Origin: a bacterium BMS3Bbin13
GTDB lineage: Bacteria > Pseudomonadota > Gammaproteobacteria > 21-64-14
DNA length: 64,000 nucleotides
Reading direction: 5' to 3'
Assembly: GCA_002897735.1 (NCBI GenBank)
Contig: BDTW01000024.1
Span: 25,598 to 89,597 of the forward strand
This document shows, one piece after another, positions 21,680 to 35,126 of this stretch. Made by a program: the position numbers and the translations under genes. How positions within the stretch are numbered: position 1 is the stretch's first letter; every line of letters starts with the position of its first letter. The notes beneath the pieces are model-generated. The model had not been told where the DNA came from. It saw nothing but the letters and a program-made list of their open reading frames with translations, and ran no database searches.

Positions 21680-21880
21680 GCGCCCCGAATACCCATATGT
21701 CAAGCCTGACCCCGGGGCGGTCGTGATGGCTTTCGCCGGCGGGTTCTGTTACACTGACGCCCAAGTGCAGTTGTCGGTTTACTCGGTCGTTTCCGGTAGT
21801 TCCCGTAGGGTCCCTCCCGCAAGGTCCGTTCACGTCGCTGCACGAAAACCCATCCGTAATTGTTTTGAGGTCTTGAATGT

Positions 21881-22087
21881 ATGCGTAACGGAACTGTCAA
21901 GTGGTTCAATGAATCTAAAGGCTTTGGCTTTATCTCTCCGGTGGACGGCGGAGAAGACGTCTTCGTCCACTACTCCGCCATCCAGAGTTCCGGTTTCCGG
22001 TCTCTGACCGAAGGCCAGAGCGTCACCTTCGAGGTCCAGCGTGGACCCAAGGGACTGCAGGCTACCGATGTCAACGTAGCCGCCTGA
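21881..22087 (+). CDS. cspA: cold-shock protein, CspA family
   Basis: [15 protein letters not shown] (RNP1) and DVFVHYS (RNP2). 68 aa, preceded by about 180 nt of non-coding leader. Confidence 0.95.
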
Positions 22088-22116
22088 ACCCGCCACGAGT
22101 TGTATCGTGGATCCGG

Positions 22117-22141
22117 CCCCGCCGCAAGGCGGGGTTTTTTA
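22117..22141 (+). terminator. rho-independent terminator of cspA
   Basis: CCCCGCC-GCAA-GGCGGGG stem-loop followed by TTTTTTA. Confidence 0.8.
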
Positions 22142-31684: not shown

Positions 31685-32090
31685 GGACGGAGCGAAGCGC
31701 AATCCGGAGCGTCCTGTCTCCGGGTGTGTTCCCCGGATTTCGGCCTTCGGCCTGTATCCGGGCTACATCTGAGGGTTCTCGATGTGGCCTGGACGGAGCG
31801 AAGCGCAATCCGGAGCGTCCTGTCTCCGGGTGTGTTCCCCGGATTTCGGCCTTCGGCCTGTATCCGGGCTACATCTGAGGGTTCTCGATGTGGCCTGGAT
31901 GGAGCGGAGCGCAATCCGGAGCGTCCTGTCTCCGGGTGTGTTCCCCGGATTTCGGCCTTCGGCCTGTATCCGGGCTACATCTGAGGGTTCTCGATGTGGC
32001 CTGGACGGAGCGGAGCGCAATCCGGGGACGGTGATCCGGGGTTTGTGCCGGGATCCCCGGCCTTCGGCCTGTATCCGGGCTACATTGTGG
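31685..32090. repeat. 106-bp tandem repeat: three near-identical copies plus one degenerate copy, each carrying a GTAG-type REP hairpin
   Basis: Copies start at 31685, 31791, 31897 and 32003. Copies 1 and 2 are identical, and copy 3 differs at 2 positions. The minus strand of each reads GTAGCCCGGATACAGGCCGAAGGCCGAAATCCGGG. Confidence 0.85.
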
Positions 32091-33128: not shown

Positions 33129-33353
33129 CTCAGTGGAAGTAAGCCCCCGGCTTTGCCGGTTGTGTTTGCTATCGTGAGTGACACCAAGAACGAAGATATC
33201 ACAATACCTTTTCCCCCTCGGCTTAACCTTCGTGCCGCCTTGAGGAGGTGGAGGCCGGCAGGATATGGTTATCGAGTGTCCATAGCGAAGATTCCGGTCA
33301 ACGCGGGCAGGAGCAGACCGAAACGGTATGATTCAGAATAGAAAAATATAACC

Positions 33354-34262
33354 ATGCCCTATCCCATCATCAGACTTGCCGAAGATGCGCCTGCCCAGCT
33401 TGAGCAACTGGGCACCAAGACCAAGTTCTGGTATCGCGATGAAAATGGCCTTCGTATGATGTTTAAACAAGGCAGGCCCGGTACGGGCGAGAACTGGGCC
33501 GAAAAGGTTTGTTGCGAGATCTGCCGCCTGCTGGATATACCACATGCTGAGTATGAATTAGCAGTCTGGAAAAGAGACCAAAAGGGTGTGGTTACGCCAA
33601 CTTTCGTCCCGAAAGGCGGTCGTTTGGTGTTGGGCAACGAACTGCTGGCGCGAATTGTAGATGATTATGATCAGACCAAACCTTTCCGGGCACGCCAGCA
33701 TACAGTGCGAACTGTGATGGCGGTGGCCTCATCTAAGGCGGTCGGTTTTCCGATGGGCTGGAACCACCCGAAATCTATTGCAGATGCAGCGGGTGTTTTC
33801 GTCGGTTACTTGATGCTCGATGCGCTGGTCGGCAATCAGGATCGCCACCACGAAAACTGGGGTGTAATATTTTTGCCCGAAGAAGGTGTATTCTTTGCCC
33901 CCACATTTGACCATGCCTCCAGCCTGGGTCGTAATGAGGCCGATGCTGCTTGCACCGACAGATTGACGACCAAAGACAAAGGCCGAAGTGTTGAGACCTT
34001 TGTCGCACGTGCCAAGTCGGCCTTTTATAGTACACATTCGAGTACTAAGTCCATAACAACCTTGGATGCATTTCGGGAAGCGGCTAAAATCAGGCCTGAA
34101 GCGGCCAATCACTGGGTAGGCCAATTGGCCGGTGTTAGTATGAAAAGTTGCAGGAAGATTCTCGCTGAAATCCCTAATACTGAGATTTCGACGCCTGCCC
34201 GTGATTTTGCCGGTAGAATGTTAGAAATTAACGCTAACAGGATTTCTCAAATATCATTATGA
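33354..34262 (+). CDS. HipA-family Ser/Thr kinase core (HipT-like, no N-terminal subdomain)
   Basis: Gly-rich/Lys loop LGTKTKFWY at residues 19-27, catalytic loop LDALVGNQDRHHENWG (about residues 155-170), and Mg-binding PTFDHASSLG (about residues 183-192). 302 aa, low GC. Confidence 0.75.
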   Translation: MPYPIIRLAEDAPAQLEQLGTKTKFWYRDENGLRMMFKQGRPGTGENWAEKVCCEICRLLDIPHAEYELAVWKRDQKGVVTPTFVPKGGRLVLGNELLARIVDDYDQTKPFRARQHTVRTVMAVASSKAVGFPMGWNHPKSIADAAGVFVGYLMLDALVGNQDRHHENWGVIFLPEEGVFFAPTFDHASSLGRNEADAACTDRLTTKDKGRSVETFVARAKSAFYSTHSSTKSITTLDAFREAAKIRPEAANHWVGQLAGVSMKSCRKILAEIPNTEISTPARDFAGRMLEINANRISQISL

Positions 34263-34269
34263 GAAGGCT

Positions 34270-34998
34270 GTGAAAGCCCTGTTTGTTGCATGGCAAGATG
34301 CTCAAAGCCGTCGCTGGGCGCCGGTGGGCCGACTCACGCGTGAAAATGGTATCTACCAGTTTGTTTACACGCGCGGTGCGGAAGAGATGCCGAACTTCCG
34401 CCCCTTCGGCCGCATGCGGGACCTGCACAAGACGTACAAATCGGAAGAACTTTTCCCGATGTTTGCGAACCGCATTCTGGCGAAGAACCGTCCCGAATAT
34501 GGAGACTATTTGCGCTGGCTCGGTTTATCCGATTCCGAATACGACGCGCTGGAGGAGCTGGCGCGTACCGGCGGACTGCGTGCAACCGATTCCCTGGAGC
34601 TGTTTCCTTGTCCGGAACCAACGGCGGACAAGAACTATCAAGTCTATTTCTTCTGCCGGGGGCTGCGGCACCTACATACGGAAAACCGGGAGCGCACGCG
34701 TCATCTGGGACCTGGTGAACGCCTTTATTTGATGCAGGACCTCCAGAATCCTTACGATGGTATGGCGCTACTATTGCGCACAGGCGATCCGATTACACTG
34801 GTCGGCTATGCGCCACGCTACTATTCCGGTGAATTCACGCAGGTGATTAACGCAACCTCACCGAATCAAGTCAAGGTGACGGTCGAGCAGGTCAACCGGG
34901 ATGCTCCTATTCAATACCGTGTTCTTTGTCGGTTGGTCAGCCCGTGGCCGGCGAGTTTTTCACCTTGTGCGCGAGATGAGTTTAGGGTGCTTGCTTAG
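34270..34998 (+). CDS. HipA-N/HipS-like domain fused to a HIRAN domain
   Basis: Residues 1-112 (PVGRLTRENGIYQFVYT ... LFPMFANRIL ... LRWLGLSDSEYDALEELARTGGLRATDSLEL) resemble the HipA N-terminal coupling domain. Residues about 123-225 (YFFCRGLRHL...LGPGERLYLMQDLQNPYDGMALLL...LVGYAPRY) fit the HIRAN pattern. The GTG start lies 7 nt after the kinase stop. Confidence 0.65.
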   Translation: MKALFVAWQDAQSRRWAPVGRLTRENGIYQFVYTRGAEEMPNFRPFGRMRDLHKTYKSEELFPMFANRILAKNRPEYGDYLRWLGLSDSEYDALEELARTGGLRATDSLELFPCPEPTADKNYQVYFFCRGLRHLHTENRERTRHLGPGERLYLMQDLQNPYDGMALLLRTGDPITLVGYAPRYYSGEFTQVINATSPNQVKVTVEQVNRDAPIQYRVLCRLVSPWPASFSPCARDEFRVLA

Positions 34999-35126
34999 GT
35001 TCATGGAGCATAAAAAGCCACGGGCTTGCGCCACGACGGCGGCTACACTTGGTAGGGCCATCCCGGCACGGGCTACCTTTGCCGCCGGCCGGTGAGTTAC
35101 GGAACGCACGATCGGCACTGAGATCA

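Follow-up and report, generated by a model that had tools for sequence, protein, structure and literature searches.

What does a HipA-type kinase core do when the N-terminal subdomain that it lacks appears to be carried by the product of the next gene, fused there to a putative sensor of DNA ends? The question is raised by two adjacent genes, hipI and hipN, in a 64,000-nucleotide stretch of contig BDTW01000024.1 from bacterium BMS3Bbin13 (assembly GCA_002897735.1), hereafter called the window. An earlier note, made from the sequence alone, had described the pair as a HipA-family kinase core followed 7 nucleotides (nt) downstream by a HipS-like::HIRAN fusion, with no HipB, and had mentioned a 2021 survey that predicted such operons. 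The two open reading frames (ORFs) and the 7-nt gap were borne out by the sequence, and the survey exists: Gerdes, Baerentsen & Brodersen (mBio 2021; PMC8262856) describe this operon as hipIN, composed of the HipI kinase (279–321 amino acids, aa) and the antitoxin candidate HipN, and place it in main clade XI of their Hip Tree, with 14 hipIN modules in the data set. They hypothesized that HIRAN recognizes the DNA ends of invading phage and that the kinase is then activated, leading to abortive infection; under experimental analysis of clade XI they list 'None', and no later characterization was found in the literature searched, as the note had supposed. The locus is almost certainly a horizontally acquired, mobile hipIN module, equivalent to the PDC-M03 entry of PADLOC. 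Neither the architecture nor the DNA-end idea is new to the literature, and a defence-system database already lists the family. The features of the locus, in window coordinates, are as follows.

33160..35010, unstranded: low-GC island that contains both cassette genes and is bounded by the terminator-like hairpins of pfkB and bolA
33147-33159 (+) and 35037-35015 (-): terminator-like hairpins flanking the island
33271..33353, + strand: leader upstream of hipI, common only to the closest relative (locus L103)
33354..34262, + strand: hipI (gene 1), ATG start, 302 aa
33408..33434, + strand: Gly-rich (ATP-binding) loop LGTKTKFWY, HipI residues 19-27
33831..33857, + strand: catalytic loop GNQDRHHEN, HipI residues 160-168, with catalytic Asp163
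33906..33929, + strand: Mg-binding motif FDHASSLG, HipI residues 185-192, with Asp186
34263..34269, + strand: intergenic spacer of 7 nt; on reading of the sequence, a Shine-Dalgarno-like GAAGG overlaps the kinase stop codon
34270..34998, + strand: hipN (gene 2), GTG start, 242 aa
34270..34605, + strand: HipS-like domain of hipN, residues 1-112
34636..34944, + strand: HIRAN domain of hipN, residues 123-225
34945..34998, + strand: conserved C-terminal tail of hipN, SPWPxxFxPC, and stop codon

HipI matched the PADLOC profile PDC-M03A over residues 2–300 (E = 5e-120). In the profile searches that the earlier note had proposed, it reached E = 4e-7 and 30.3 bits against Pfam HipA_C, slightly under the gathering score of 30.5; NCBIfam gave no match for either HipI or HipN. 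Homologues of HipI amounted to 3,494 matches. The three motifs quoted in the earlier note (LGTKTKFWY, GNQDRHHEN and FDHASSLG) stand at the residues that it gave, and among 33 homologues the Gly-rich loop region showed E17, G20, K22, K24 and W26 to be invariant and T21 nearly so, with two further invariant blocks at N161–G170, which includes the catalytic D163 and N168, and at D186–E195. A profile alignment with HipA (sequence taken from the MG1655 record) placed HipI D163 on the catalytic D309 and D186 on the Mg-binding D332, and covered only HipA residues 295–337. The AlphaFold2 model of HipI (predicted local distance difference test, pLDDT, 88.2; predicted template-modelling score, pTM, 0.89) had CtkA as its closest structure in the PDB (Foldseek E = 1e-12, template-modelling (TM) score 0.70–0.76), followed by HipA and then by HipT of both solved HipBST systems, and it matched the HipA/HipT core only. 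When the HipI sequence profile was searched against PDB sequences, CtkA was found at E = 1e-8 and HipT was marginal (E = 0.33). As judged from these alignments and the model, HipI is a Ser/Thr kinase core of the HipA superfamily that has no N-subdomain-1 and retains both the catalytic and the Mg-binding Asp, as the earlier note had proposed for gene 1.

In a loop alignment made by eye, HipA S150-V-A-G153 was set against HipI E17-Q-L-G20 (E17 at 33402–33404). This alignment places the invariant E17 where HipA has its autophosphorylated Ser150, and E17 could be a built-in phosphomimetic; T21 and T23 are alternative phospho-sites.

The product of the second gene matched PDC-M03B over residues 1–240 (E = 2e-94), and its GTG start is backed by homologues that all begin MKALF. 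A word-indexed search returned 540 homologues of HipN, and in an exhaustive search at least 1,621 clusters at 50% identity matched the HipN profile; the 150 best representatives were essentially all stand-alone proteins of about 240–270 aa that matched end to end. At the level of sequence, the family matches of HipI and HipN are far beyond chance. The AlphaFold2 model of HipN (pLDDT 87.5, pTM 0.84) found its best PDB matches by Foldseek in HipS, namely 7vkb_B from Legionella and 7ab3_E from E. coli O127 (TM 0.70–0.71 on target), and the HipN profile was colinear with HipA residues 5–96 at 31% identity (hhalign); Pfam Couple_hipA matched residues 18–68 weakly (E = 0.047). The segments from which the earlier note had read a HipS-like module (PVGRLT, YQFVYT, LFPMFANRIL and LGLS..RATD) all lie within the first 107 residues. 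Across 131 diverse HipN relatives (32–55% identity), N67, R68 and R74 were 98% conserved and D107 100% conserved, and the most conserved part of the N-domain is the loop equivalent to the HipS active-site loop, to which N67, R68 and R74 belong. K72 and P75 of HipN fall at the equivalents of HipS Glu63 and Trp65, in a mapping that was bridged through HipA by a weak alignment (E = 0.028) and is therefore approximate.

The second domain of HipN was recognized by Pfam HIRAN (PF08797) over residues 125–223 with 26.7 bits, above the cut-off of 24.7, and its Foldseek matches were the HIRAN domain of HLTF bound to DNA (4s0n and 6kcs), the bacterial HIRAN-like structure 3k2y and Rad5 (6l8n), which agrees with the HIRAN assignment of the earlier note. 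With the HLTF sequence checked against the PDB, N160-P-Y-D163 of HipN aligned with N91-P-Y-D94 of HLTF, A166 with A97, G179 with G109 and Y180 with H110. Among the 131 relatives N160 was conserved in 99%, D163 in 91%, A166 in 98% and G179 in 99%, and D163 is invariant among close relatives. In HLTF, D94 is the residue that recognizes the 3'-OH of the primer, and the terminal bases are pinched by Y72 and Y93 (PMC5773155). The equivalent of HLTF F142 in HipN, mapped by eye, is a Pro. Beyond the HIRAN domain, the C-terminal tail of close homologues has W226 and F230 invariant, with P225, P227, P232 and C233 nearly so. Taken from sequence and model together, HipN is a two-domain protein, a HipS/HipA N-subdomain-1 fold joined to a HIRAN domain that keeps the 3'-OH-holding residues of HLTF.

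Searches of PDB sequences with the HipN sequence or profile were uninformative, and the matches to T-cell receptors that they produced were dismissed as chance. In BFVD, viral proteins of 109–128 aa (A0A516LHX6, Bacillus phage G Gp253 and A0A6J4EGR2), together with several phage proteins annotated as HIRAN, are similar in fold to one or the other domain of HipN, with TM 0.57–0.69 on target.

The two genes behave as a unit. Their order is the same in all contexts examined, with the kinase gene immediately upstream of hipN and on its strand; the spacing varies between an overlap of 4 nt and a gap of 21 nt, and no third gene is conserved across 13 chromosomal contexts. For 36 pairs matched by contig, the distance matrices of HipI and HipN correlated with r = 0.82 (Mantel 0/2000). 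DNA homology to related cassettes starts between 33352 and 33396 and ends at the hipN stop codon, the one exception being the closest relative (L103, 89%), in which it starts at 33271, about 80 nt further upstream than in the others; since homology is limited to the cassette, the mobile unit is hipI plus hipN alone. In descent as in transfer, the two genes stay tightly together. The 7-nt spacer with its GAAGG suggests that hipI and hipN may be translationally coupled.

The earlier note had also remarked on the absence of HipB, and this agrees with the data: no helix-turn-helix (HTH) domain, nor any other credible domain, was seen in any island ORF on either strand, and at related loci the space before the pair is often too short to hold an upstream gene, as evidenced by gaps of 16 nt (L015) and 49 nt (L009). 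A 62-aa ORF at 33153–33338 (+) was considered as a third component and rejected, as it is not conserved in related cassettes. This ORF has a sub-threshold match to the C-terminus of DUF6119 (profile positions 480–524 of 524, E = 0.0034) and could be a relic of a neighbour in the donor genome or a chance match.

The island (about 1.85 kb) has a GC content of 0.526, against 0.680 for the whole window, and GC at third codon positions (GC3) is 0.51 in hipI and 0.61 in hipN, against 0.87–0.885 in the host genes pfkB, ligA, bolA and ispA. Because these values lie so far below those of the flanking host genes, the cassette is clearly foreign DNA that was acquired horizontally. An identical pair stands at the same site in three assemblies, including GCA_002897835.1. 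Around the cassette, the search for flanking direct or inverted repeats that might mark a transposon or attachment site gave only short matches at chance level; there is no transfer RNA (tRNA) gene within the window, and no convincing palindrome was seen upstream of hipI. The promoter is presumed to lie within 33271..33353, and a promoter scan upstream of hipI gave a number of sites no higher than that of shuffled sequence. An exact pre-insertion site was not present among 80 metagenome loci with pfkB orthologues (63–73% identity); these share no ligA, bolA, YCII or ispA synteny with the window, and none of the 80 holds the cassette.

Related pairs were located in other genomes (handles beginning with L); the scan of genome contigs used a single protein query, which gave four loci, and an alignment query would reach further. 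Five of the 13 chromosomal contexts abut known or candidate defence genes, and these are listed here with two other contexts, in coordinates of each locus where available.

L001, 5451-9077: hsdS, an unknown gene and PDC-S11
L002, 1411-4188: hsdS and a SIR2/ThsA-like gene
L004, 764-2415: hsdS
L015: SIR2_2 and ApeA, between mnmE and mnmG
L016, 723-5125: FRG and HsdR
L009: a ParE toxin-antitoxin pair and a DUF3800 gene
L008: edge of a TraU/TraG block of integrative and conjugative element (ICE) type, conjugative

In L001, L002, L004 and L016 the pair is just downstream of type I restriction–modification (R-M) genes (hsdS/hsdR), at times with PDC-S11 or the SIR2/ThsA-like gene between, and in these four it appears to lie inside type I R-M defence islands. 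At L009 (5742–9023) thiC looks split, with a 629-aa ThiC, an Unstab_antitox/ParE pair and a 128-aa ThiC_Rad_SAM fragment preceding hipIN; this looks like either a toxin-antitoxin insertion or a gene-calling artefact.

The integrase-proximal site is the usual place of prophage accessory ('moron') genes, and two temperate phages carry a complete pair adjoining their integrase: a 13.9-kb Vibrio cyclitrophicus phage of the Vinavirales (L099:10953–12646) and the C. difficile phage phiCDKH02 (L100:4092–5681). Their position suggests prophage-encoded defence or addiction. Complete pairs were also found on a plasmid of Nostoc, with DUF499 and DUF1156 genes as neighbours, and on two IMG/VR viral contigs; the phage, plasmid and viral-contig pairs all match PDC-M03A/B. 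The closest plasmid relatives of HipI are cyanobacterial, and the 2021 survey has a proteobacterial/cyanobacterial HipI subclade (PMC8262856).

A phage gene of a different kind carries only the HipS-like half. Rathayibacter phage NCPPB3778 encodes gp43, a stand-alone protein of 127 aa (L104:3486–3869; KX911187.2, 29921–30304) that is located among small early-type genes and matches PDC-M03B at profile positions 5–121 (E = 1e-29). Its hhalign probability against HipN residues 1–118 is 97.8%, and it keeps the equivalents of R68, R74, Y77 and D107. The annotation of NCPPB3778 shows no integrase, repressor or kinase, and neither a kinase nor a HIRAN domain is found elsewhere in the genome; the phage is apparently lytic. 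On its sequence, gp43 could be an antitoxin-mimic decoy directed against the defence. Because it resembles the antitoxin mimic that would be expected, it supports an inhibitory role for the HipS-like domain and a function in phage defence, as a single case; gp43 was the one stand-alone HipS-like phage gene found.

How might the two proteins work together? In the mechanism that we propose, HipN would dock on HipI through its HipS-like domain in the uninfected cell at the site of HipA N-subdomain-1, as fold homology suggests, and the docked lid would keep the Gly-rich loop of HipI ATP-incompetent. Upon infection, the HIRAN domain would capture free 3' DNA ends (phage genome ends, or replication or recombination intermediates), and the complex would open or rearrange. 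The freed HipI would then phosphorylate an essential host protein, possibly an aminoacyl-tRNA synthetase by analogy with HipA and HipT, so that translation would stop and the infection abort. That this full mechanism, a HipN lid released by HIRAN capture of 3' ends to allow kinase-driven growth arrest, is correct we regard as an evenly balanced proposition. Kinase competence is argued because the catalytic motifs are invariant, D163 and D186 align with HipA D309 and D332, and the fold is that of HipA/CtkA. A lid role for the HipS-like domain is argued because the top Foldseek matches are HipS, the domain is colinear with HipA 5–96, known HipS is an antitoxin and the loop residues N67, R68 and R74 are conserved; a DNA-end sensor is argued because HipN D163 corresponds to HLTF D94, the residue of 3'-OH recognition, and both N160 and D163 are conserved. 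That the pair is one functional unit follows from the constant gene order, the co-divergence (r = 0.82) and DNA homology over two genes only. A role in defence or in mobile elements is indicated by the defence neighbours in five of 13 contexts, the temperate phages, the plasmid, the ICE-type tra genes and the phage-borne HipS-like half.

Several observations weigh against this mechanism. Docking of HipN on HipI is argued from fold homology only. The same subdomain belongs to an active kinase in HipA, and a HipS-like domain is therefore not inhibitory by default. HipN is without the Glu63/Trp65 wedge of HipS and has Pro there, as in HipA; any inhibition must therefore work otherwise than in HipS. 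Y162, the equivalent of HLTF Y93, is variable across the family, which together with the Pro at the F142 equivalent fits the published idea that single-stranded DNA ends, not duplex, are bound. The nearest solved relative of HipI is CtkA and not HipA or HipT, which makes transfer of the tRNA-synthetase target weak. Classical labile antitoxins usually evolve faster than their toxins, and the reverse is seen here: over the 36 pairs HipN evolves more slowly, with a mean pairwise distance of 0.26 against 0.36 for HipI, and both HipN domains are equally constrained. Six of the 13 chromosomal contexts, including this window, have housekeeping neighbours only. Finally, no experiment on toxicity, interaction, DNA binding or phage resistance of hipIN, HipL or PDC-M03, and no published validation of PDC-M03, was found in the literature searched.

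The slower evolution of HipN also bears on the reading of the pair as a type II toxin-antitoxin addiction module, in which HipN would be a labile antitoxin, the element would be stabilized by post-segregational killing, and HIRAN would serve in DNA tethering or autoregulation in place of HipB. The occurrence of pairs on plasmids, by prophage integrases and by ICE-type tra genes speaks for it, as do the many copies that stand solitary among housekeeping genes and the lack of HipB, which might call for another DNA-binding function to regulate the operon. But HIRAN domains recognize DNA 3' ends and not specific sequences (PMC5773155), the upstream regions are not conserved between cassettes, so that there is no shared operator (nor a convincing palindrome), and an antitoxin more conserved than its toxin is unexpected if it is labile. 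HipL, moreover, fuses the HipS-like and HIRAN domains to the kinase, and differential degradation cannot remove a fused domain; as no kinase–HipS–HIRAN fusion was present among the 120 closest kinase matches or the 150 closest HipN representatives, the argument from HipL rests on the 2021 paper. With R-M, SIR2 and ApeA neighbours and the solo HipS-like gene of a phage that is apparently lytic pointing to conflict with phages, we consider addiction unlikely. We give a still smaller chance to the proposal that HipN is an activating or targeting subunit, which would complete the kinase and recruit HipI to DNA 3' ends, its substrates being end-associated replication, recombination or repair proteins of host or phage. 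The features that favour it are the absence of a Trp65-type wedge, with HipN being HipA-like (Pro) at that position, the stronger constraint on HipN than on the kinase, equal in both domains, a pTM of 0.84 that suggests a fixed geometry between the domains, HipL fusions that show the lid to be compatible with a single-chain kinase, and a nearest structural relative, CtkA, that is not the tRNA-synthetase kinase of a toxin-antitoxin pair. Yet both free-standing HipS proteins studied experimentally inhibit, the solo HipS-like domain of the phage fits best if that domain turns the kinase off, and the strictly conserved basic loop N67-R68...R74 is at the position of the HipS active-site contact.

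That the cassette is a decaying or silent relic, recently acquired and non-functional in this host, is highly improbable: its strongly foreign codon usage (GC3 of 0.51 and 0.61 against 0.87), the lack of a recognizable promoter in the scan and the GTG start of gene 2 could be so read, but neither ORF is truncated, both align colinearly with hundreds of homologues, all family-invariant catalytic and binding residues are kept, and the identical pair occurs in three independent assemblies. A bolder variant of the lid mechanism would make HipN a permanently bound regulatory subunit, gated by 3' DNA ends, of a stable HipI–HipN holoenzyme; end capture would flip the lid from an inhibitory to a HipA-like activating state and localize the kinase at the DNA end, and phages would counter it with decoys like gp43. 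This variant we hold to be somewhat unlikely. If true, it would describe an immune sensor in which DNA ends directly gate a protein kinase, with a logic like that of end-activated eukaryotic kinases.

Should the proposed lid mechanism hold, the sensing of free 3' ends would be coupled to a translation-blocking kinase, for which no validated bacterial immune example was found in the literature searched, and the HipA family of persistence toxins would be extended into phage defence. What the locus itself contributes is one more intact member, from an uncultured proteobacterium of high GC. The leads of use are at the level of the family: the missing Trp wedge, the conservation of HipN, the integrase-side pairs in two unrelated temperate phages, and the possible HipS-like decoy.

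Two further observations were made elsewhere in the window. A tandem array in the ligA–pfkB intergenic region (31685–32085) consists of four copies with a period of 106 nt (105 in the last), of which the first three are 98–100% identical and have in common a 47-nt core without any mismatch, GGGTGTGTTCCCCGGATTTCGGCCTTCGGCCTGTATCCGGGCTACAT. Of all Rfam families, just one reaches its gathering score in the window, the cspA thermoregulator (RF01766) at 21777–22139 (+), with 81.9 bits against 78.

Comparison with known systems places the locus among its relatives as follows. CtkA is described as a stand-alone secreted kinase. This proinflammatory kinase of Helicobacter pylori (PDB 3akj/3akk/3akl) is closest to HipI among solved structures, in structure and in sequence. 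The HIRAN domains of HLTF and Rad5 share with that of HipN an OB-like (oligonucleotide/oligosaccharide-binding) fold and the equivalents of N91, D94, A97 and G109; there the domain is part of a SWI/SNF-RING protein, whereas in HipN it is joined to a putative kinase-regulatory domain. Canonical HipBA, with a HipA of about 440 aa that has N-subdomain-1 in cis and an upstream HipB, differs from this locus, in which HipI is 302 aa and HipB is absent. The resemblance to HipBST of E. coli O127:H6 and Legionella pneumophila is closer, as there too kinase and N-subdomain-1 are separate, a HipS-fold protein providing the latter in trans, and the kinase fold matches HipT. Two modes of HipT inhibition by HipS have been reported: HipS takes up the position that N-subdomain-1 has in HipA and inserts Trp65 as a wedge beneath the Gly-rich loop (PMC10627512), and it remodels the P-loop of HipT so that ATP cannot bind (PMC9325769). 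The hallmark of HipBST, a hipB-hipS-hipT order with an HTH-type HipB and, upstream of the kinase, a free HipS of about 100 aa, is not found here: the locus has two genes instead of three, the kinase comes first, the HipS-like domain is fused to HIRAN, there is no HipB or HTH, and Trp65 has no equivalent. HipI differs from HipT in that it has no N-terminal mini-domain and carries the Thr-containing LGTKTK where HipT has the SxS loop.

HipAD/DS-6, reported with DefensePredictor (PMC13092281), couples a HipA-like kinase to a partner other than HipB and defends against phage in a manner that needs the catalytic residue of the kinase; HipA-type kinases can therefore be defence effectors. Its partner carries DUF3037 and DUF1829 and not a HipS-like::HIRAN fusion, and it is a different system. 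Matches to 'HIRAN' in the text of Millman et al. turned out to be the surname Hirano and were set aside. A 2025 paper in Nucleic Acids Research (NAR) reported that HIRAN-HipA(HipI) operons adjoin diDNase genes in Actinobacteria and left the link for investigation. HipL (Gerdes et al., 2021; PMC8262856) has the same three modules, kinase, HipS-like and HIRAN, as one polypeptide from a single gene, whereas here they are distributed between two genes; HipL and HipN have HipS-like domains that share one branch, apart from the HipS of hipBST (PMC8262856). PDC-M03 of PADLOC, in which PDC entries are candidate systems, is a two-gene combination of one protein with a HipA domain and one with a HIRAN domain, and the locus matches its A and B components end to end, adjacent and on the same strand. 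The hipIN operon (PMC8262856) is defined by a small core kinase with the Gly-rich loop near its N-terminus, no N-subdomain-1, no HipB and a bicistronic arrangement. Each of these features is present here, no architectural difference separates the locus from hipIN, and the family, which comprised 14 modules in the 2021 set, now extends to at least 1,621 clusters at 50% identity.

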